Positions 816 to 40,641 of a stretch of 47,069 bases of DNA are shown here, piece after piece. The position numbers and the translations under genes are program-made. The notes beneath the pieces were generated by a model. That model searched no databases. It was not told the origin of the DNA and was given only the letters and a program-made list of their open reading frames with translations. Source of the DNA: a virus (lineage: Duplodnaviria > Heunggongvirae > Uroviricota > Caudoviricetes); IMG/VR virus record IMGVR_UViG_2778261418_000014, positions 1 to 47,069 of that record; one strand, given 5' to 3'. The stretch's first letter is position 1. Every line of letters begins with the position of its first letter.

Positions 816-3800
816 ATGAATAAAATATATAAAGTGATATGGAACCACAGTACTCAGCAGTGGGATGTGGTTTCAGAATTGACAAGTTGTAGAAAAAAAT
901 GTAAATCAACTCGCTTAGGAATTGCTTTATCAGCAATGGTTCTGGGGGGCGCTATTGCAATTAATTGCAATAACGCAATGGCAGATGTCATATTGTCACC
1001 AGACTGGCGTCCGGGTACGAATAACTCGGGTGTTGGGGCTGCAACAGTAAGTGGTAAAACCGAATACATCACTGGTCCAAATGTCGTCCAGTCTGGTGGG
1101 TCAGGTCTTATCTGGATGACTGTAGAACAGGCAATTTTAAATGGCTACACCACTGGAGATAATTTATCCGGATTGATTTACGTCAATACCGGAGAAAAAA
1201 CAAAAACCATTACAGTGAAGGATGAGGTTACTGGCGCTTCTCAAACACTTCAAGTGTTTGATACTGACTCTTTCTCACAACGCGATGCGGGGACTGGGGG
1301 AAATGAAAATATTCCTGGTTTTAGTGGGACTGCGGATTTTTTTAATGCGACACGTTTTGTAACAGCAGAAAATGGCGGTACAGCTATTTTAAATGTGGGT
1401 TCGCCTGCAATCGGTAATTTTTTTAAAAATACACAGCTTGCTGTAGCTGATGGAGACGGTTCCTCTGTTGTATGGAACTCGGTCAATGATTTTTATTTTC
1501 AGCCTGCAGCAACCATGCAGGGGGGCGGCGTTACTCAAAAGATCATTGACTCAATGAAATACGCTGGAACAATTACTGATTGGACGGGTAAAGTACACCA
1601 TATTAACTCTCTTGATGATTTAAAGCAATATAATCAATATTTGATAAAGTCACTAGAGGACAAAACGCTTTCTTATAAGCAGTATGATGCTGAATTTAAT
1701 AAGGCCCTTATTGTCACCAAGCATAATTACAATGTGGATATGACCGCTGGGGGACGTATAGACTCAACTCCTTACAAAGAAAATGTAGGGCTGCTTGCTG
1801 TTCTCCATGCAACCAATAAAGCACGAGCAATATTAGGTAAAACGGGTAAATTAACTGGAGTTCTTCCTGCCTATGGGAATGGAGGAGGGATCGTTGCAAC
1901 TAATGGTGGGACCGGTGTTAATGAAGGGATCATTGATGCCATTGGTACTGAAATGATTGCCTATCAAGACAGTACCATTGTTAACGATGGTACACTTTAT
2001 GTTTGGGATAATAATGATAAATATGCTCTCCAGGCGGAGGGGATGGTTGCTGGGAGTAATAACTCATCAGCCATTAATAATAGTGTCATTAATATTCGCC
2101 CATTTAAAAATGCTTTCGCACCAGAGGGGATTAACACCGCAATTGTTGTTAGCAATGGAGGCATGGCAACAAATAATGGCACGATAAATATTACTGCTGA
2201 TGCATCAACTAATGATAATAATGGAAAAACACGAGGTGTAAATGTTGGAGCAGGAGGCTCTTTTATTAACTCGGCCTTAGGGAACATCAATATAGGTATT
2301 GCGGAGGATAAAACTGCGACTCATTCGGCTGTGGGTTCTGTTGCGATTGAAGTACAAAATGGTGCAAACAAAGTCGTTAATGAAGGTACTATTCTTTTGG
2401 GCACGGGGGCTCAGGGGAACTACGGAATCCTGGCAAAGGATGCCGGGACTGTTGATGTGGTAAATACAGGGACTATCACTATTGACGGTCATGACAGTGA
2501 TGCACCTGCACTGAATATCGGTATGTTTGCAAATAACAGCACCGGGCTGAAAAACACCGGGGTTATTAATGTGAATGGCCTGAACAGTGCCGGATTACAG
2601 GTCATAAACGGAGGCCAGATAGCGTCTGACGGTACTGTAAATGTTGGCGGCAAGGGTATCAGTAGTGGTTTCCGTAACTATGGCGCATGGGTGGAAGGCA
2701 CCGGAAGTCGTGTTGATATATCCGGCGAAATTAGCCTTACCGGTGACGGCGCAGTGGGGGTTTTTGCCAAAGATGGCGGAAACCTGACCCTGTCAGGGAA
2801 TGGTGCGGTGGTATTCGGTGGCAGTGACCAGGTGGGGTTTTATGTCTATGGTGATGGTTCCGCCATTCATAATACCGGGAACAGTGTTATGGATGTTTCC
2901 ACCGAAAATTCAACGTTATTCCGTATTGCCAGCGGGGCGGTATACCGGGGGGGCACAGGGGCATCCTCTGATCTGACGGCATCCGGTAAGAACTCGTATG
3001 CGCTTGTTGCCACTGGCAGGTCTGACACAGGGACTGCCTCAACCGTCACATCCGGAGGGATGACCATCAACCTGACGGGAGAGGGGGCGACAGCTGTCCT
3101 GGTAGAGGGCGGGGCACAGGGCTCAATTGACAGTAGTACCACTATCAATATGGATAATGCCAGCGCGATTGCCGGTATTGCGGATGGCAACGGGTATGAT
3201 ATTTCCGGCAATCTTATTAATCCAAATGACAAGACCACATTATTAACAGCAGGTGCTCAGCTGAGCTCTTCTCAGGATAAAGTAACCGGGTATATCGCCC
3301 GCAATGGGGCAACCCTGGAGAACACCGGTAATATCACCTTTACCGGAAAGAACACGACCGGTATCCGGGTTGAGGAAGGCGCTACTGGCACCAACAGTGG
3401 AAATATCATCGTTCAGGATGGCGGTGTGGGATTACTTGCCCGCGGCTCACAGGACTCCACGACCATTAATAACAGCGGCAATCTGGTCCTCAGTGGGGGG
3501 GATAATGCCAATCGTACCACTGGGGTTAAAGCTTCCGGTGCAGCAACAACGGTTAATATGATCGCCGGCACACTCGAACTGCAGGGGCAGGGGGCGATTG
3601 GCGTTGAGGTCAGTGAACAGGGAACGGTGAATCTTGAGGGGACTGCCATTCCTAAGTTTGCTGCTGACGGTTCCGGTATTACCGATCAGATTGCTTTCCG
3701 TATTATCGGAGATGGTGCAACCATCAATACGAAGGTTGCACAGGGAACGCTGCTGGAAGCCAGTGGGCAGCGGTCAGTGCTCTTCCGCATTGAAGACGGG

Positions 3801-6800
3801 GCAAAACAGACAGGCTCTCTGCTGATGCAAACCTCCGGGACAGGCAGCCGGGGGATCTGGGCCGCAGGGAAAGGGAGCAATGTCCTGGCTGAGGCTGGCA
3901 GTGATTTCCAGATCCTGGGGGCTCAGGCTCAGGGATTATATGTAACTGGTGGTGCGACAGCGACGCTGAAACAGGGGGCATCAGTTAACCTTGTAGGGGA
4001 TGGCGCTGTTGTCGCGGAAGTTGACGGAAATGAATACGCTCTGGATGGCAGTATTACACAAACGAATACTGGCTCGGTTATTACCAATGAGGCAGATATC
4101 TCTTCGCCGCTGAATAATGCCAAGGGCTTTATTACGCGTAATCAGGGACTGTTGATTAACAGCGGCAACATTGATTTCACTGCCGGTACCGATAATATCG
4201 GCGTCTGGGTTGATAACGGCCGCTTTGAAAATACAGGAAGCCGTATTGCGGTCAATGGCGTTGCATTATTTGTTGAAGGCGCACAGTCTCAGATTACCAG
4301 CACAGGAGGGAATATCGTCGCTGTGGATGGTGAGGCTGCCATTAAGCTGGGGGCGGGCGCGTCACTGAACCTGGCAGGGAGTGGCCTGGGTACGATCGAA
4401 GGTCAGAAAAATGCGCATGGCATCCTGCTGGATACAGGGGCTGTGGGGCTGGTTATTGATGGTGCGAAAATCAATGTTAATGCTGCAGGTGCGGTCGGTC
4501 ACGGGATTGAGAACCGCGCAGAAATTGAAGGCATTCAGTTAACCAATACGACTGAAATTAATGTGGCTGATGGCATTGGTGTGCGAACTTCTGCTTCTCT
4601 GGCGAAGACCAACAGCGGCACTATTAATGTAGACGGCAGTGGAATTGCACTGGCGTTCCAGAAAGCTGACGGAAGTGAAACCGATAATAACCTGGATATG
4701 TCTGACTCCGGCGGATTAGTCATTAATCTGAAAGGCACGGGCGGCACGGGTATTTTCGCCAACACTAAAGATGGTGCTGTCGTGAAGAGTGGTGCAAGTG
4801 TCAATGTTACACAGGCCGATGGCGGTTCCGCTCTGGTGGTTAACAATGCGGCCAGTGAAGTGGTTCAGAGCGGTAATCTCATTTCTGCTTCTCTGAATCA
4901 TGCCGTGGTGGATGCATCAAAAGCACTGTCCTTTACCAATAAAGGTCAGATTAAAGCTGCGTCCGCCACCGGGACTGCAATGGCGTTTGATGACGCAGTG
5001 AATACCACCGTACTGAATGACAGCGGTGCTGAAATTCAGGGGGTTGTGGCTCTGAACGGCGGTGATAACACATTCACCAATAAAGGCAGTATTACCGGAA
5101 CCGTCAGTGCAAAAGATGGCAACAACACATTGTTATTTGATGACGGCAGCATACTGACAGGAGAAGTGACTGCAGGAAATGGCAATAACAATGTAACGCT
5201 CAATGGTAAGGCTCATGTTGATAAGATTACTGCCGGTACCGGGAAGAACACCTTCACCATTAAAGGCGAAGGGGCAACCTGGAACCAGCTGGATGGCGGG
5301 CAGGGAGATTCTGATTCCCTGATTTTTGATAACGCCATTCATACGCTGGATTCTGTTGTAAAACTACGGAATTTTGAACATGTCGGGCTGAAGAACAGTT
5401 CGCTTGTCACTCTGAAGGAAGCTCTTGTGCTGACCGATGGGGGGACCGGCCCGGGTTCCGTCGATATTGAATCGGGCAGCGAACTGGCCATTATTCCCGC
5501 AGTTGCAGGCAACTTTACCTTTGATCCATTGTTAACGGGCAAAGGAACGCTGTCTGCTCAGCTTGATGCCGAGACCTCTGCTTTTGAATTCAGCCATAAC
5601 GTCGGGGATCAATTTGCCGGAACTCTGAAGCTGGGTACCAGTAGCTTTGCTCTGGAAGGGCTGAATACGAGCGGGTTAACCCATGCAATGCTGATGTCTG
5701 AAACCGGGAATATCACAACGGTTGGCTCCGGTGTTCAGCAGATTGGCGGTCTTGGGTTCAATGGCGGAACGCTGATTTTTGGTTCCGTTATGCCGGGCGA
5801 TACCATTGCCAGCAACAGTATTGAAACCTCTGCTGCAGGTACGCTGGATATCCGGGGGAAAGGCACAATTCAGGTCACCATGCCAGATGAAGTGATTAAT
5901 GATATTCCGGCTGTTGATACCCGTAAGAATTTGCTGGAGCAGGATGATGCGCAGACCCTGGTCACGCTGGTGAATGCAGCGGGTACCGTCACCGGTACTG
6001 GCGGGCAACTGCAACTGGTGGATGAAAACGGGCAGGCTATTTCTCACAGTCAGACGTTTGATGTCACTCAGGGCGGTGAAGTTGTAGCTCAGGGAAATTA
6101 TGACTATAAGCTGCTGGGAAGCTCCGACGGTATTAAAGGTGACGGACTGTACATAGGCTATGGGCTGAAGTCGCTGGATTTACAGGGAACCGGTGATAAA
6201 GCGCTGGTGCTGACACCGAGAGCGAATGCCCAGGGACTGCAGACAGATCTTGGCGCACAGTTAACGGGGGCAGGGGATCTGGCCATCGAAGCTGCGGGGC
6301 AGGTTGTCACACTGTCTAACGGCGGTAATAACTACACCGGGGATACGCTGGTGCGCAGCGGCACATTACAGATGGCAAATGATAATGTACTTGGCGCAAC
6401 AGGTAATCTGAACGTCGCCAGCAATGCCGTCTTCAGAACAAACGGATACAGCCAGACTGTCGGTGCACTGCAGACAGAAACGGGAGCGCACATTCAGCTT
6501 GATAGCGGTAGTGTACTAACGGTCAGCGGCACGCAGCGTCAGCCGGGGGATGATAATGGTGGCATCATTGAAAACAACGTGCTGTCCGGTGAGGGAACGC
6601 TGGCTGTCACGGGCAGCAATCTGACGGTACATGGCACCAATATCGGGTTTACCGGTAATGCCAGCCTTACCCAGGGGGCGCTGGTTGAAATGAACGGCGC
6701 ACAGGGGCTGGGAAGCCAGGGCTCCATCAGCTTTGAAAGCCTTAATGATCGCCTGGCGATTGATATCGCCGACGGTAGCGGAGTCAGCAGTAACCTGAGT

Positions 6801-12160: not shown

Positions 12161-12177
12161 ATTGCTCTAATGTATTG
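12161..12177 (+). promoter_or_regulatory. C1 repressor operator upstream of lpa
   Basis: ATTGCTCTAATGTATTG versus the 17-bp consensus ATTGCTCTAATAAATTT. Confidence 0.65.
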
Positions 12178-18581: not shown

Positions 18582-18598
18582 TAATTTATTAGAGCAAT
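18582..18598 (-). promoter_or_regulatory. C1 operator (Op99-type) in the c1/coi leader
   Basis: The reverse complement matches the consensus at 16 of 17 positions. Confidence 0.7.
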
Positions 18599-18664: not shown

Positions 18665-18681
18665 ATTGCTCTAATAATTAT
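18665..18681 (+). promoter_or_regulatory. C1 operator (Op99-type)
   Basis: ATTGCTCTAATAATTAT. Confidence 0.7.
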
Positions 18682-34745: not shown

Positions 34746-34762
34746 ATTGCTCTAATTAATTT
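34746..34762 (+). promoter_or_regulatory. C1 operator upstream of ssb
   Basis: ATTGCTCTAATTAATTT matches the consensus at 15 of 17 positions. Confidence 0.65.
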
Positions 34763-34781: not shown

Positions 34782-35270
34782 GTGGCACAACGCGGTGTAA
34801 ACAAAGTCATCCTGATTGGTACCCTGGGGCAAGACCCGGAGATCAGGTATATACCAAATGGCGGAACGGTCGGAAGACTAAGCATCGCAACAAATGAATC
34901 ATGGCGCGACAAGCAAACGGGCCAACAGAAAGAGCAAACAGAATGGCATAGAGTCGTTTTGTTCGGGAAACTTGCTGAAATTGCGAGTGAGTATTTACGA
35001 AAAGGTTCTCAGGTCTACATCGAAGGGAAACTTAAAACCCGTAAGTGGACAGATGACGCCGGTGTAGATCGTTACACGACGGAAATTATCGTCAGCCAGG
35101 GCGGCACCATGCAAATGATCGGCGCTCGCCGCGACGATTCACAATTCTCAAATGGCTGGGGGCAGTCAAACCAACCTCAAAACCACCAGCAATACAGCGG
35201 TGGCAGTAAACCTCAGAGCAACGCCAATAGCGAACCTCCAATGGACTTTGAAGACGATATTCCATTTTGA
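34782..35270 (+). CDS. ssb: Single-stranded DNA-binding protein
   Basis: Begins [23 protein letters not shown], contains [14 protein letters not shown], ends with the acidic tail MDFEDDIPF. Confidence 0.95.
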
Positions 35271-35320
35271 GAGGGCTGAAAGTTGCTCGATTACTTAAAA
35301 ATAACTTTACCTAATTGGTG

Positions 35321-35347
35321 TAAAAAAATGGGCGCAACAAAGCGCCC
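35321..35347 (-). terminator. Terminator for the porin transcript
   Basis: gggcgc-aacaaa-gcgccc preceded on the plus strand by an A-run, giving a U-tract on the minus strand. Confidence 0.45.
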
Positions 35348-35503
35348 CAACAATAGAGTTTCAAATTAATAAAAAGGTAATAAATAACATGAAGTTAAAT
35401 TGAGAAGAGGCAATTTTATTGCCTCTTCAAAGGTGGCATGAGGGTGCCACCTATATGCGGGCAGTGACATCACTCCCTTCCCGCATATTCTTACCTACCA
35501 AAA

Positions 35504-36619
35504 TTAGAATTGGTAGGTCATACCAACAGCAACGATGTTGTCGGTTGCAACCTCAGATGTTTTGGTAAATTCACTTTCATCAATCAGGTTGATCTTGTAG
35601 TCAACGAAAGCGGACATATTTTTGTTAAAGTAATAAGTCGCGCCCACGTCGATGTATTCAACCAGATCCTGGTTACCGAACGCACCAATATTTTCACCGC
35701 GAGAGTGTAGGTAAGCGATGGACGGACGCAGGCCGAAATCAAACTGGTATTGAGCAACGGCTTCAAAGTTTTTCGCCTTGTTCGCGATATGGTCATCACC
35801 GAAGACTGTCATATTCTGAGTTTCAGAATAAGTTGTAGCCAGGTAAATGTTGTTTGCATCATATTTCAGGCCCGTAGCCCATACTTCAGCAGTTTTACCA
35901 GAGGCATTCAGATTCAGAGGGGCTTTAGCATAGGATACCTGTCCATCAGTACGGTCAGATTTTGCATAAGTTGCGCCAATGCCAAATCCTTCATAATCAT
36001 AAGTAGCTGACAGACCGAAGCCATCACCATTAGATTCAACTACGTCGCGGCCTTTCCAGTTGTTCACTTTTGCAGCACTATCATTTTTACCCTGATACTG
36101 CAAAGCAAAGTTCAGACCATCAACCAAGCCGAAGAAATCATTGTTACGATAGGTCGCGACGCCAGTAGCACGCTGGGTCATAAATACATCAGTCTGAGTC
36201 CAGGTATCTCCACCAAACTCCGGCAGCACGTCAGTCCAAGCGCCAACATCATACGCTACACCGTAGTTGCGACCATAGTCGAGCGAACCATAATCGCCAA
36301 AGCGAAGCCCTGCAAACGCAAGACGAGTTTTATCTTTATCAGAACCTTCAGTTTCAGTACGGTTACCTTTAAATTCGTACTCCCACTGACCAAAACCGGT
36401 TAACTGGTCATTAATCTGAGTTTCACCTTTGAAACCCATACGAGCATAAGTTTTATCCCCGTCATCACTAGCTGAAGAAGAGAAGTAATGCTCTGCATTA
36501 ACTTTGCCGTACAGATCCAGTTTGTTACCGTCTTTGTTATAGATTTCTGCCGCTTGTGCAGACATTGCCATCAGGACTGATGCTGCAACCGCAGAAAGTG
36601 CCACTGTGATTTTTTTCAT
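35504..36619 (-). CDS. General porin of the OmpC/NmpC/Lc family
   Basis: Signal peptide [23 protein letters not shown], then [23 protein letters not shown], and the C-terminal VAVGMTYQF. Confidence 0.9.
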
Positions 36620-36730
36620 TTTTTTGCCCTTTAGATTGAACTTTTCAGTAGAAAAGAGGTCACTGCGGACAAATGTTTATCTTTTTTGGATTCGTGTTTC
36701 AAGTTTTGCAAATAAAAATCAAGGTATTTT

Positions 36731-36746
36731 TGTGATCAAAATCACA
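36731..36746. promoter_or_regulatory. CRP-like binding site upstream of the porin gene
   Basis: TGTGA-tcaaaa-TCACA is a perfect TGTGA-N6-TCACA core, about 115 bp upstream of the porin ATG. Confidence 0.35.
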
Positions 36747-37358
36747 AATAATAACCTTGAAAACCCAATGGACTATTAGAAAAATCTCAATTCACAGAAT
36801 AAAAATTGACAAAATAGAACAAAACACAATCAACAATAAGCACAAAAGACAAACAATTAAATTAGCACAAAAATAATAACTGCAAAAATAGATAGTCTGT
36901 TAATTAATAGGGTTTTAATGGATGTGGATTTGAAATCTACTTAAAAAGTAGAGTCAAATTAATTACTGTCGATTGGGTATTAAACTGAATCTATATTGTG
37001 AGAGTTAAAGACGATGTGTTTTAGTTATACATGTTATTCCCTAAAATGGAGTAGTCTCATCGAATTCTGATTAATAACGAGCTAAGCCAATTCATTTTAG
37101 TATGTGTATATCTTTACCCTCTGAATATGCAATGACGAAGAGATATTAAACAATATGTAGCTTCAGGATTGACTCTGGAAGAATTAAAAGATCGGCTAAA
37201 GTGTTCAATATGTGGTGAGCGAAACGCAAAAATTAAAATTTTTTGATCTAACATATTAGGCAATAGCTTGCTTCCATAACCTAAAGCAAGCCACTACGCG
37301 TTTACTTTAAGTACACAATTAACATATCAGAACAGATTATTTGTGCACTATCAGGGAG

Positions 37359-37664
37359 TTAATATACGATCTGGTCTACATGATCCCCAAAATCATCGTC
37401 GTCCTCATCGCCACCCTCTACTGCTGGCCAATCGACAAACCAGCCAGCGTAAAGATGCAGCGTTCGGAGAACATCACTTGCGGGAGCATCAAGGGTGTTA
37501 ACGAATCCCATATAGCTATTGGGATTTGCCCCAGCTATGGCTTCAGCGATCATGTCCTCGGTAATGTCACCGGAGATAATGCTTAAACGCCCGGAAACTT
37601 CTTCATTATCATCAAATTCGATAATGGCATCTCCGCCTAATGGCGCTGCGATTTTAATCTGCAT
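37359..37664 (-). CDS. hxr: Hxr-like protein, last gene of the darA operon
   Basis: 101-aa acidic ORF overlapping the ddrB stop. Confidence 0.45.
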   Translation of the reverse strand: MQIKIAAPLGGDAIIEFDDNEEVSGRLSIISGDITEDMIAEAIAGANPNSYMGFVNTLDAPASDVLRTLHLYAGWFVDWPAVEGGDEDDDDFGDHVDQIVY

Positions 37665-40641
37665 TATTTAGCTCCTTTGCCACACCTAATAACAGTTCCA
37701 GCAATCCGTCACCATTCATCAGTGATGCGGCAGCGGCCTCTTTGTCATGATACAACTGAAGAGCCATAGAGAATACTTCCGTTGCTGATGTTTTTGAAAT
37801 AGTCGGTGCTTTCTGCCGAATTTTCCCGGAGTTACTCACTGAGGCTGGCGGGTATACCTTCGCCATATAAATATTACTCAATCGAGATCTGAAGCACCAT
37901 TCAGGCTTGCCACGCCCACCGATATTAACGAAAGATGGCTTATCCCCTTCAACATTGGCCTTCAGGAATGACCGGGCTTTCTCTAACAAACCAGGGTTAC
38001 TGTACTCAAGATGATGACCCAGCTCGTGCCACAGTGCACTTGCATTTTCATCGTTCAAATTGACAGCAACAACACCATTAAGATTTGCATATGCCCTTCC
38101 CTGGTGGTGAACCACCTTTGATAAGGTCGAAATTTTACCGCCGGTCAGGCGATAAATATCAGCAAGTTCCTTGCGCAGGTCTATCCCACCATTCTGTCCA
38201 GCGCGGGCTTCTTCCACTTCTTCCGTGATAAAAGAGTCGGCCCACTCAAGAGCTTTTTCTTCAGATACGGATGAGTTTGCGATCGCACTGTTCATGGCAG
38301 ATAACACTTTCTCGTGGACCGAACCCATACTTCGCTGATTCATTTGCCAGCGTGTCTGCGGGTTATATGAGAATCGCTTAAGTAGTTGGTCAAGCTGCTC
38401 AAGTTCTTCTTCACTGACATACCTTTTAGCCTCACCAATAATGCCAGGGAGAATATTGCCGTTAGGATTAAACGCTCGCGAAAGGAAGAGTTTCAGCGCC
38501 CCCATGCCCTCCGATGCTTCAATATCACCAATAACCCGGTTAACAATGGCCGCACTCTTCGGATTAGCATCCGCCAATGCTCTGGCTACAATTTGCAGGG
38601 ACGATACGACCTCACGCTGCATATCCGTCCTGATCTCATCAATAAACTCTGGCGTTATACCGTGCTCTTTAAGGATATCCCTGCCTTCCGCCGTTACCCC
38701 ATCGATATCACCGACATGTTTATTAACCCGACTTTGCAATGCCTTAAATGCCTTCAGAATTCCACGGGCATCATCCGCTTTACTAACGGCCTTCCTGAAT
38801 GCTGGCAAGAAGTCTGAGTTAACCTCATTTTGTTGATCGGCCCACTGAATGGAGGCTTCTTTCATCTCGTCCAGAGTCAGATCACCCAACGCGGTATGGT
38901 CTGTGAATATGAGCGACAACCTCTGAACCATTTCTGCCAATGGTGATGCCGAATGCGCCGCGCTAAGGAATGCTTTCACCCTGGTTGGGCGAATGGAAAA
39001 CCAGTCAATAGCTGGTGGCATATCTCCGTTTTTTATCGCCTGCGCTATCTCGTCAAAGCCATCGCGCCCAAGGGAGGATGCGTGATTTAACAAGCCGCGA
39101 AGTAACGAATTGCTGATACCGAATAATCGGCACCATTTTTTCACGTCGGCAACAGGCATTCGAACAAAATGCGCAAGCACTTGAACAAGCTGTTCATCCT
39201 GGGGATCTGTACGGGAAAGCAGCCTGATCAGATGAATAATGTCTTTGATGCCGGATGCCCGATGTAATAGCAAACTGGTATATGGAGCAACACCGTTGTA
39301 ACTACCGCCGGAAACGGACTCGAAAAGACCGCCGGATATCCCTTGCATGCCTTCGTTTTCCAGTTCCTGAGACACCTGGCGAAGGATATCCTGTAACGAC
39401 ACATCACCACCGCCAAACATATCCCCCAGCGCCTGGCACTGGTGCTGTAACTCATCATTGATACGTTGAGCCATCAATTTAAAGGCGGTGGCCATACGCT
39501 TCGCGCTACGGTTATTCGCGACGATGAATAACGCGAGAGCTTTCACTTCCGGGGCTGTTTCGCTGAACATATCCCCCTGAGCAATAACATCGGTAATATG
39601 TTGGCCTGACTCCTTCGATTGCCTTACCAGGTCTACCGCATCTTTCAATGCCGCCAGCGCCTTTTTATCGAGACTATCCGCTGTCTCAATACCATCAACA
39701 ATAGTTGTCACAGCCTGCTTGTGCGCTTCACCTGATAAAGCCTGCATCTGGACAAAATCATTGGCTGCCGCATTAAGCGACGTCAGAACATTACGCATAT
39801 CTGGATCAGGTTCTTCTGCAACCATCCTTACCAGGCGCGCATCCTTATATGCCTTGGCAAAGATCGCGTTTTGTATACGGTCTACAAGTTGCCGTGTTGG
39901 TCGCCCATCTTCCGTTACAAGGCCAGCAGCCTGTGTGGCACCAACTTGCGTCATGAATCCGCGGATAAACGCGTCATTACTGCGGCTAAGCAGATCTCCG
40001 CTTTCTGACGGGTTAAACAGCGCCATCATCGCCGAAGTTATGTTGTCGGCATCAACAAAAGCCTTTTCACTGGCTGCCATTTCCTGAAGATCAGAAATAT
40101 TTGAGTCCTTGGCAAACTGAACGCGGTCAACCTTAGTTAACCGGCGGCGCACCAGTACCGGAGCCGCCATTGATTCAACCTTTTCAGGTCGTATGCCGAA
40201 TTCGGTCGCATGATCAATCAGGTACTCACGATACCGATCCGCATTGCCGTCCTGATAGGCTTTGATGATCCCCATGGTCCGTCCATTACCTGACTCAACG
40301 GCATTGTCCTCACCAATTATCGGCGCTCCATGGCTGGATAAACCGGAATCGGTAAGCTGAGCAGGCCGCAAATCCTTGGATATCTGGTTAACCTGAAGAA
40401 GGCTGGATGCGCGGGTCCGGTCGCGCGGCTGAAGTTCCTGGGGATAGTCCGGATTAATTTTCCCGTCCAGAGTATTGGATACCAAAAGAGCTGAGGCATC
40501 GACGATATCAAACGCTGTTTTTACCTCGTCTCCCTTCGCTGTCACCACATACGAAACCCGCCCGAAATCGGGCAGGTTTTTTAGCAGCTCGATCAGCGTT
40601 TCTATGCTGGTGGCCATTACCACCTGATCGCTTAAGCTCAT
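37654..40641 (-). CDS. ddrB: DdrB-like internal head / antirestriction protein
   Basis: 995-aa ORF downstream of ddrA and darA in the same operon. Confidence 0.55.
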   Translation of the reverse strand: MSLSDQVVMATSIETLIELLKNLPDFGRVSYVVTAKGDEVKTAFDIVDASALLVSNTLDGKINPDYPQELQPRDRTRASSLLQVNQISKDLRPAQLTDSGLSSHGAPIIGEDNAVESGNGRTMGIIKAYQDGNADRYREYLIDHATEFGIRPEKVESMAAPVLVRRRLTKVDRVQFAKDSNISDLQEMAASEKAFVDADNITSAMMALFNPSESGDLLSRSNDAFIRGFMTQVGATQAAGLVTEDGRPTRQLVDRIQNAIFAKAYKDARLVRMVAEEPDPDMRNVLTSLNAAANDFVQMQALSGEAHKQAVTTIVDGIETADSLDKKALAALKDAVDLVRQSKESGQHITDVIAQGDMFSETAPEVKALALFIVANNRSAKRMATAFKLMAQRINDELQHQCQALGDMFGGGDVSLQDILRQVSQELENEGMQGISGGLFESVSGGSYNGVAPYTSLLLHRASGIKDIIHLIRLLSRTDPQDEQLVQVLAHFVRMPVADVKKWCRLFGISNSLLRGLLNHASSLGRDGFDEIAQAIKNGDMPPAIDWFSIRPTRVKAFLSAAHSASPLAEMVQRLSLIFTDHTALGDLTLDEMKEASIQWADQQNEVNSDFLPAFRKAVSKADDARGILKAFKALQSRVNKHVGDIDGVTAEGRDILKEHGITPEFIDEIRTDMQREVVSSLQIVARALADANPKSAAIVNRVIGDIEASEGMGALKLFLSRAFNPNGNILPGIIGEAKRYVSEEELEQLDQLLKRFSYNPQTRWQMNQRSMGSVHEKVLSAMNSAIANSSVSEEKALEWADSFITEEVEEARAGQNGGIDLRKELADIYRLTGGKISTLSKVVHHQGRAYANLNGVVAVNLNDENASALWHELGHHLEYSNPGLLEKARSFLKANVEGDKPSFVNIGGRGKPEWCFRSRLSNIYMAKVYPPASVSNSGKIRQKAPTISKTSATEVFSMALQLYHDKEAAAASLMNGDGLLELLLGVAKELNNAD

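Follow-up and report, generated by a model that had tools for sequence, protein, structure and literature searches.

A porin module of the lc/nmpC-ipeX type on the phage-plasmid P7, with a conserved CRP site and a 3' untranslated RNA that may target host porins

Among lambdoid elements, phage PA-2 (lc-ipeX) and a cryptic prophage (nmpC-ipeX; DLP12, qsr') carry a module lying between Q and the lysis genes, in which the 3' untranslated region (UTR) of a porin gene is occupied by ipeX, an element reported to repress OmpC and OmpF in trans. Here we describe a unit with the same parts in the same order, from a CRP-type site to a terminator, on the P1-like phage-plasmid P7, where it lies between ssb and hxr; it is a further Lc/NmpC-IpeX case on a different type of mobile element. 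The unit was found in a stretch of viral DNA of 47,069 nucleotides (IMG/VR record IMGVR_UViG_2778261418_000014, called the window in what follows), and a sequence search showed the region concerned to be 100% identical to Enterobacteria phage P7 (AF503408 / NC_050152). The porin gene itself is not new: the P7 depositors annotated its open reading frame (ORF) in GenBank as 'nmpC, NmpC precursor, outer membrane porin precursor', and P7 nmpC is mentioned in the literature (PMC6906374). Its conserved perfect CRP site, a covariation-supported homologue of the small RNA (sRNA) IpeX and the variant seed of this RNA were found neither annotated nor described in the material searched. On balance, we think it probable that the locus is a 'porin-swap' lysogenic-conversion cassette, orthologous as a whole to lambdoid lc/nmpC-ipeX and working through the mechanism proposed below.

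The original prediction had likened the gene to Lc of PA-2 and to nmpC of a cryptic prophage, and the likeness turned out to be module-wide. A blastn search of phages matched the PA-2 lc record as well as some 40 lambdoid phages, at about 75% nucleotide identity, over window positions 35372-36682; the matched span reaches about 130 nt past the stop codon on the 3' side and about 60 nt beyond the ATG on the 5' side, and direct alignment extended the 5' homology to about 130 nt. Since the homology to lc and nmpC reaches beyond the coding sequence (CDS), the analogy is one of true orthology of the whole module. The two kinds of module nevertheless differ. The CRP core is perfect in P7, whereas the lambdoid lc and nmpC modules have a half-site plus 2 mismatches; the stems of the P7 hairpins have been rewritten through compensatory changes relative to lambdoid ipeX; and the seed differs from the lambdoid one at about 5 positions and by an 18-nt insertion, its best pairing being with the Shine-Dalgarno (SD)/AUG region of ompF instead of the ompC 5' UTR. 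In the protein, P7 has a 7-residue insertion in a variable loop that is absent from Lc and NmpC and common to Escherichia fergusonii. Finally, the distal 388-bp AT-rich segment belongs to P7-type cassettes only and is not part of the lc/nmpC modules.

The 3' UTR, overlooked in the original prediction, holds an RNA of IpeX type through which any porin replacement or exclusion would probably act and which probably shuts down host OmpC and OmpF (Table 1). In direct alignment, this UTR is homologous, though diverged, to the ipeX region of DLP12 and PA-2, which has the matching position, and the homology runs as far as the terminator. The P7 and DLP12 sequences have a common predicted fold consisting of three hairpins, an AU-rich single strand and a terminator (z=-6.0 and -8.4). 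A MAFFT alignment of the 3' UTRs set hairpin 3 and the terminator out of register, and RNAalifold missed both; the covariance model was built from 12 distinct 3'-UTR variants with an explicit four-helix structure and Infernal realignment. In the resulting structural alignment 96% of the cells pair, and 12 of the 36 pairs show compensatory double changes, compared with 2.2 +/- 1.2 in shuffles (0/500) and 1-2 in slid registers. The model matches P7 with 127.7 bits (E=2.6e-25), partly by construction because P7 is in the seed alignment; independent support for IpeX homology comes from the same fold having been predicted separately and from the covarying pairs. Directly after the stop codon, the model also matches 86 of 86 phage-type loci, including the chromosomal copies of E. 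fergusonii, whereas none of 82 other enterobacterial porin loci, which carry a single terminator hairpin, gave a significant match.

Rfam has no IpeX model, and the authentic ipeX region of DLP12 gives zero Rfam matches. The sole Rfam match in the P7 region is a sub-threshold one to GcvB (RF00022; 35322-35508, minus strand; 30.5 bits versus a gathering threshold of 42, E=3.5e-4). We rejected a GcvB identity, the match being below threshold and lacking the GU-rich R1 region, with 14 nt in place of the 43-nt segment that contains it. The sequence UUAACUUCAUGU in the 3' UTR resembles the R2 region of GcvB. We read the likeness as an architectural resemblance of an IpeX-type RNA, not as GcvB. In a second P1-like allele of the cassette (JL22 type), zero differences from P7 were seen over 358 nt (35201-35558), against 4-7% elsewhere in the cassette. 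This block is made up of the final 55 nt of the porin CDS, the 3' UTR and the 3' end of ssb, which suggests that a boundary of recombination lies within the 3' end of the porin gene, and we set the identity aside as ambiguous evidence of constraint.

In the lambdoid, Escherichia albertii and E. fergusonii lineages, despite their differing stems, the single-stranded stretch does not vary (AAACCUUCUGUUAUAUAUUACCCUUUAUUUU); P7 has a distinct version, UUAACUUCAUGUUAUUUAUUACCUUUUU, plus the insertion. Duplex energies of this stretch were calculated against the leaders of K-12 porins and compared with 2000 shuffles and with a genomic background of 93,000 70-nt windows from 78 enterobacterial chromosomal loci; RNAduplex runs with the full-length 3' UTR gave meaningless long-range pairings and were discarded. 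With ompF, the P7 seed reaches -24.5 kcal/mol (4/2000 shuffles as good), the core extending from -13 to +9, SD to codon 3, in a predicted 22-bp duplex made of 15 pairs (12-nt perfect GGUAAUAAAUAA within), a 1-nt target bulge and 6 more pairs over AUGAAG. With ompC it reaches -20.8 kcal/mol (41/2000) through AAUAACAUGAA plus GUUAAA, over the AUG. The lambdoid seed has the opposite preference, with -26.7 kcal/mol for the ompC 5' UTR (1/2000; -32 to -2) and -18.6 kcal/mol for ompF (49/2000; -15 to +9). Pairing with phoE, ompN and the phage porin's own leader was at background, between -7 and -15 kcal/mol (-10.9 for P7 on its own translation initiation region, TIR). Energies of -24.5 or better were found for the P7 seed in 0.063% of non-TIR windows versus 3.0% of porin-TIR windows, and of -20.8 or better in 0.63% versus 16.5%; nearly all the top background matches of the lambdoid seed are porin leaders. 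By these calculated energies, the complementarity of the P7 seed to ompF and ompC is above chance, though, the seed being AU-rich, not unique. The covariance model also gave weak matches antisense to OmpC-like starts in five loci (L059, L074, L078, L080, L082; about 2430-2600, minus strand; E=0.3-0.7), which are non-significant and were left unused, being consistent with seed-leader complementarity and no evidence for it.

The hairpins could also serve the porin messenger alone. The porin would then be a permeability or nutrient-uptake fitness gene under carbon limitation and its 3' UTR a terminator and mRNA stabiliser acting only in cis, an explanation that we regard as unlikely. Stable 3' hairpins followed by a terminator are indeed typical of mRNA 3'-end protectors, but ordinary chromosomal porin genes end in a single terminator hairpin, and a pure stabiliser needs no invariant single strand such as the one kept in three lineages with diverged stems. 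Covariation proves structure and not trans-action; the homologous DLP12/PA-2 element was nevertheless reported as a trans repressor of OmpC and OmpF. Similarly, the match of the P7 seed to ompC lies at the 0.6% tail of the background, whereas porin TIRs as a class show a 26- to 48-fold enrichment with the P7 seed and porin leaders dominate the best background matches of the lambdoid one. CRP control would fit a scavenging role, and activation of NmpC alters cefotaxime permeability (bioRxiv 10.64898/2026.08.19.745717), both of which speak for an uptake function.

Upstream of the gene, the TGTGA-N6-TCACA that had been noticed at 36731-36746 is present, and its porin-strand reading TGTGATTTTGATCACA is the sole perfect core of this kind in the window. 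Shuffling the window gives 0.07 expected perfect cores, with at least one in 7 of 100 shuffles, so that uniqueness taken alone is only suggestive. The palindrome is not due to chance because its position is conserved in the homologous modules. The GenBank record of PA-2 lc (J02580) has two annotated CRP-binding sites, one of them at 1363-1383 with its centre about 119 nt from the lc ATG, and the P7 palindrome aligns in register with it. When the 5' flanks of every porin gene were taken from about 170 loci, a CRP-type site was found at -117 to -120 in all four module-carrying lineages: the P7 type (TGTGATTTTGATCACA) and the E. fergusonii chromosome (TGTGACTGTGATCACA, or in locus L089 a 16-mer identical to that of P7) have 0 mismatches to the core, and the lambdoid (AGAGATCTACTTCACA) and E. 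albertii (GGAGATCAAATTCACA) versions have 2 each. Chromosomal OmpD, OmpC, OmpF and PhoE genes lack such a site. Across the four lineages the spacers that separate the CRP site from the following blocks have almost wholly diverged, and CTTGAAA, AGATrAAyAT, GCAGTGAC and the SD are kept, a pattern of conserved blocks amid diverged spacers that is a phylogenetic footprint. Between the P7 and JL22 types, the proximal 130 nt are 1.5% divergent and are flanked by segments with 5.9% and 7.3%. A second CRP site as in PA-2 was not found in P7, where 2-mismatch matches occur at chance level (23 vs 21.8 expected).

That the palindrome is fortuitous, or has another use such as a divergent transcript into the AT-rich region, seems to us highly improbable. 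The core is flanked by ATT...AAA, which is the CRP consensus in reverse at these positions, and the lambdoid versions have one good half-site only; yet the site keeps the same position relative to the ATG in four lineages despite the diverged spacers, is perfect in two lineages that diverged independently and was labelled a CRP site by the PA-2 depositors. The shuffles that yield a perfect core somewhere in the window also lend this explanation some weight, as does a plus-strand promoter-like match adjoining the palindrome (36757-36785), but the plus-strand ORF that was annotated in JL22 has no conserved counterpart in P7. Because of the PA-2 annotation and the conservation of the site in four lineages, catabolite control, already proposed in the original prediction, is the best-supported regulatory inference for the porin. 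If TTGAAA-17-TAAACA is the promoter, the transcription start site (TSS) is predicted at about 36666-36668 and the CRP centre at about -71.5, which would be a class I position. In one lambdoid contig of IMG/VR (L173, porin at 1501), the sequence upstream of the -10 block is unrelated and the CRP site and -35 are lost; this region is a natural promoter-swap or rearrangement variant.

The osmotic (OmpR) control that the original prediction had thought possible found no support: no search revealed any homology to ompC or ompF regulatory DNA in the upstream region, and no OmpR matrix scan was run. NmpC and Lc were first seen in ompB (ompR) mutants, which argues against OmpR dependence. Control by the P1 repressor C1 was considered and dropped, the promoter region being free of operators: none lies near the porin promoter, compared with eight elsewhere in the window (consensus with at most 3 mismatches; 0.23 expected), and expression in the lysogen is therefore possible. 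The eight 17-mers, at 12161, 15468, 18118, 18582, 18665, 20703, 30896 and 34746, form the operator network of P7 immunity; two of them lie close together (18582-18598 and 18665-18681), and the one at 34746-34762 is Op(ssb).

The gene had been predicted to be a complete minus-strand porin gene of the OmpC/NmpC/Lc family, carried by a phage-plasmid between ssb and the darA operon. It is complete: signal peptide, conserved mature N-terminus, L3 PEFGG constriction motif and C-terminal YQF are all present, and Pfam Porin_1 (PF00267) matches over its full profile (E=3e-148), residues 29-371 covering all 337 profile positions. A PDB search returned the solved OmpC, OmpK36, PhoE and OmpF structures with E=1e-104 to 2e-136, and by homology to these the product would be a trimeric 16-stranded beta-barrel diffusion channel. 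Identity to the P7 porin is 96% for the second P1-like allele (JL22 type), 88% for the E. fergusonii chromosomal porin, 79-82% for the lambdoid Lc/NmpC-type porins and E. albertii, 72-73% for OmpD of Salmonella and Citrobacter, and 62%, 61% and 56% for K-12 PhoE, OmpC and OmpF, respectively; a wider protein search gave the same order of relatives. Of the family predicted, the NmpC/Lc part stands, and 'OmpC' is too loose a name. Sequence comparison puts the protein in the NmpC/Lc/OmpD clade, the RefSeq label 'porin OmpC' being generic, and OmpC proper is ruled out by the 61% identity, the P1-like plasmid context and the absence of micF.

For the P7 allele compared with that of JL22, the ratio of nonsynonymous to synonymous substitutions (dN/dS) is 0.093 (dS=0.23), and it is 0.06-0.08 with respect to the other lineages; the amino-acid changes and indels concentrate in short variable segments, L3 PEFGG and the barrel segments being kept. 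The porin gene is under purifying selection. The hxr-ddrB backbone was found in 487 PLSDB plasmids and the cassette in 130, with a coverage of at least 80% in 99; about 100-110 of the 487 P1-like plasmids, roughly a fifth, carry it. The carriers come mainly from E. coli, and some from E. fergusonii, Salmonella and Klebsiella. Among complete E. coli genomes the cassette is present in 91 (coverage at least 80%), nearly always on plasmids, and the cassette-specific DNA occurs only together with the porin (95 E. coli genomes, almost always on plasmids). Most copies have an annotated intact porin. The suspicion that the ORF might be a pseudogene in its homologues is therefore mostly unfounded, a few copies being disrupted by insertion sequences (IS). 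Variants of about 92-93% identity were seen in E. coli CP136027 and in the E. fergusonii plasmids CP070875, AP028818, CP137858 and CP099340 (H173-H177), which have an extra insertion of about 600 bp with hypothetical ORFs, as judged from a match split in two over about 2.7 kb.

These data bear on another explanation, in which the cassette is silent cargo, silenced by H-NS through its AT-rich upstream DNA and unexpressed in lysogens under normal conditions. The upstream region has 28-30% GC, which suggests H-NS silencing, and the core promoter match is weak, with 3 of 6 consensus positions in the -10 candidate and nothing on the minus strand in a generic promoter scan; the CRP site and the promoter blocks are nonetheless conserved. 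Insertions of IS10/ISVsa5, IS3 or IS5 break up the gene in a minority of copies, and the published pSvP1 porin copy is IS-disrupted (PMC6906374), but most are intact, and a dN/dS of 0.09 over dS=0.23 within the P1-like lineage shows that the protein is selected. The related E. coli porins nmpC and ompN have been described as quiescent (PMC3333887, PMC5745476); the silence of K-12 nmpC is, however, due to an IS5 insertion and not to its promoter. Taken together, these observations make silent cargo quite improbable in our view, although the same AT-richness, weak promoter, insertions and quiescent relatives also count against the mechanism that we propose.

The boundaries of the cassette were defined by comparison with P1. 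The porin has ssb (34782-35270, plus strand) on one side and hxr/odaA plus ddrB/prt (37359-40641, minus strand) on the other, and in phage P1 the same slot is filled by isaA-IS1-isaB. Homology between P1 and P7 breaks off right after the ssb stop codon and restarts at about 37138, within the 3' end of P1 isaB; hence the porin came in on a cassette of 1,867 bp, which takes the place of isaA-IS1 and the 5' part of isaB. An isaB 3' remnant (...RDIKQYVASGLTLEELKDRLKCSICGERNAKIKIF*; about 37139-37246, plus strand) was left behind, and the hxr terminator hairpin (37266-37292, minus strand) lies 3' of it. The long AT-rich, ORF-free upstream region of the original prediction exists (36620-37358, 739 bp, 30% GC vs 48% for the window), but it is not one region: it is composed of a conserved promoter/5' UTR block of 130 nt (36620-36749), 388 nt of cassette-specific DNA and 221 nt of P1 backbone. 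The 388 nt are 5.9% divergent between the P7 and JL22 types, with no constraint above that of synonymous sites, and are a candidate H-NS target. No homologue of them was detectable outside P7-type cassettes by blastn, including the E. fergusonii chromosome, or in genome and plasmid searches; the E. fergusonii chromosome was ruled out as their source because it has no flank homology in blastn.

Table 1. Positions in the window of the P7 porin cassette and its parts.
Feature	Position	Strand	Remarks
Whole porin cassette	35271..37137	-	1,867 bp, 39.5% GC; from ssb stop to isaB 3' remnant
IpeX-type 3'-UTR RNA element	35322..35506	-	about 185 nt, stop codon to terminator T-run
Rho-independent terminator	35322..35347	-	GGGCGC-N6-GCGCCC plus T7
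Single-stranded AU-rich stretch	35349..35403	-	seed core ACUUCAUGUUAUUUAUUACCUU at 35374-35395
Hairpin H3	35404..35428	-	compensatory double changes in 7/9 pairs across lineages
Hairpin H2	35432..35451	-	GGUGGC...GCCACC, conserved loop CCCUCA
Hairpin H1 of the 3'-UTR RNA	35453..35488	-	fold and covariation
Porin CDS	35504..36619	-	371 aa; signal peptide 36551-36619; NmpC/Lc/OmpD clade; nmpC in P7
Predicted 5' UTR	36620..36666	-	GCAGTGAC at 36659-36666; Shine-Dalgarno AAGGG at about 36627-36631; homologous to lc/nmpC leader
Candidate -10, TAAACA	36674..36679	-	17-nt spacer; in AGATrAAyAT block; 3/6 consensus; putative role
Candidate -35, TTGAAA	36697..36702	-	in CTTGAAA block, invariant across lineages; putative promoter role
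Perfect CRP core palindrome, TGTGA-TTTTGA-TCACA	36731..36746	.	10/10 core positions; centre 119.5 nt upstream of ATG
Cassette-specific distal AT-rich DNA	36750..37137	.	388 bp, 28.6% GC; P7-type cassettes only
P1 backbone outside the cassette	37138..37358	.	isaB 3' remnant and hxr terminator hairpin

Comparison with other systems places the module more precisely. The protein closest to the P7 porin outside P1-like plasmids is the E. fergusonii chromosomal porin (P0009; loci L087-L089), and its module shares with that of P7 the perfect CRP core (here at -119), the promoter blocks and a 3' UTR of IpeX type; it is unlike P7 in that the seed is of the lambdoid type and no homology to the distal AT-rich DNA was found. 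This porin (5001-6113 of each locus) lies in a chromosomal, non-prophage context, yedA-vsr-HD-yedR-porin-PORIN-trkH-hchA, in tandem with a second porin that is just 48-50% identical. The phage module could have come from this E. fergusonii one, or the latter could be what is left of a phage after domestication. OmpD of Salmonella and Citrobacter, a major porin under heavy sRNA regulation (PMC3333887), belongs to the same clade as the P7 porin; unlike it, OmpD has no CRP core with at most one mismatch within 330 nt upstream, has a simple terminator after the stop codon and lacks an IpeX-type element. The mode of action proposed for the P7 RNA, imperfect antisense pairing over the SD/AUG of porin mRNAs, is that of MicF and MicC. 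These are, however, stand-alone chromosomal genes divergent from ompC and ompN, whereas the P7 RNA is the 3' UTR of the competing porin, and sequence and structural homology are absent. In concept, the P7 cassette resembles svsR of the lambdoid prophage NC-SV, a prophage sRNA that reduces the phage receptor lamB in the outer membrane and restricts infection by other phages (PMC12803456). Examined as a possible relative of IpeX, svsR was rejected: it is an unrelated RNA with lamB as its target, and no replacement porin is linked to it.

The mechanism that we propose is the following. In the lysogen, the sigma-70 promoter TTGAAA-17-TAAACA, free of C1 repressor control, would be activated by cAMP-CRP bound at the palindrome in a class I position (about -71.5). 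The transcript would code for the NmpC/Lc-type general porin, and its structured 3' UTR of about 185 nt would be released as an IpeX-type sRNA, the AU-rich single strand of which would pair across the SD/AUG of host ompF and ompC mRNAs and lower their expression, so that the phage porin would replace the host porins whenever the promoter is on. Activation by CRP, the TSS, the release of the RNA and its action in trans, and any phenotype of exclusion are predictions from sequence. Besides the features that favour silence, several points weigh against this scheme. The position at -71.5 is conditional on the predicted TSS. The covariation rests on four independent lineages and on an alignment fitted to the model, and the 3'-UTR identity between P7 and JL22 may reflect a recombination block rather than constraint, because it continues into ssb. 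The P7 seed is less specific than the lambdoid one because it is very AU-rich; several non-porin windows beat K-12 ompF, the ompC value is in the 0.6% tail mentioned above, and duplex energies ignore accessibility. Moreover, the original IpeX paper reportedly saw no simple complementarity with ompC, in discrepancy with the pairing calculated here. Finally, P1 and P7 adsorb to the lipopolysaccharide (LPS) core, so that the cassette cannot be a means of self-exclusion by receptor loss. Any exclusion would be aimed at other porin-dependent phages and at colicins, not at P7 itself, and an effect on permeability is equally plausible. A literature search for statements on PA-2 and OmpC as receptor found nothing.

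A broader proposal, which we put forward tentatively and would not yet favour over its negation, is that the CRP/porin/IpeX-type unit is a self-contained 'porin-swap' cassette that moves horizontally from one carrier to another, these being P1-like phage-plasmids, lambdoid phages and the chromosome of E. fergusonii, and that its sRNA seed evolves to retarget host porin leaders, that of P7 having shifted to the ompF SD/AUG with the ompC match kept. P7-type plasmids would then rewrite the porins of their host under catabolite control.

What these readings would mean is of interest for both the RNA and its carriers. IpeX, a poorly understood sRNA, now has relatives whose seeds vary naturally and a structure that covariation supports, and the dispute over whether it acts by base-pairing is thereby opened to direct test. 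In E. coli, Salmonella and Klebsiella, P1-like phage-plasmids occur widely, and their part in carrying resistance genes is recognised (PMC9600943, PMC6906374). If the cassette works like Lc/NmpC-IpeX, lysogens would swap OmpF and OmpC for the phage porin when cyclic AMP (cAMP) is high, which would alter outer-membrane permeability and change the susceptibility to porin-dependent phages, a matter of relevance for phage therapy, to colicins and to beta-lactams. Activation of NmpC alone has been found to alter cefotaxime permeability and uptake as well as collective resistance (bioRxiv 10.64898/2026.08.19.745717). If the unit is moreover a mobile cassette, P7-type plasmids, often carriers of resistance genes, would reshape the phage, colicin and beta-lactam permeability profile of their hosts.

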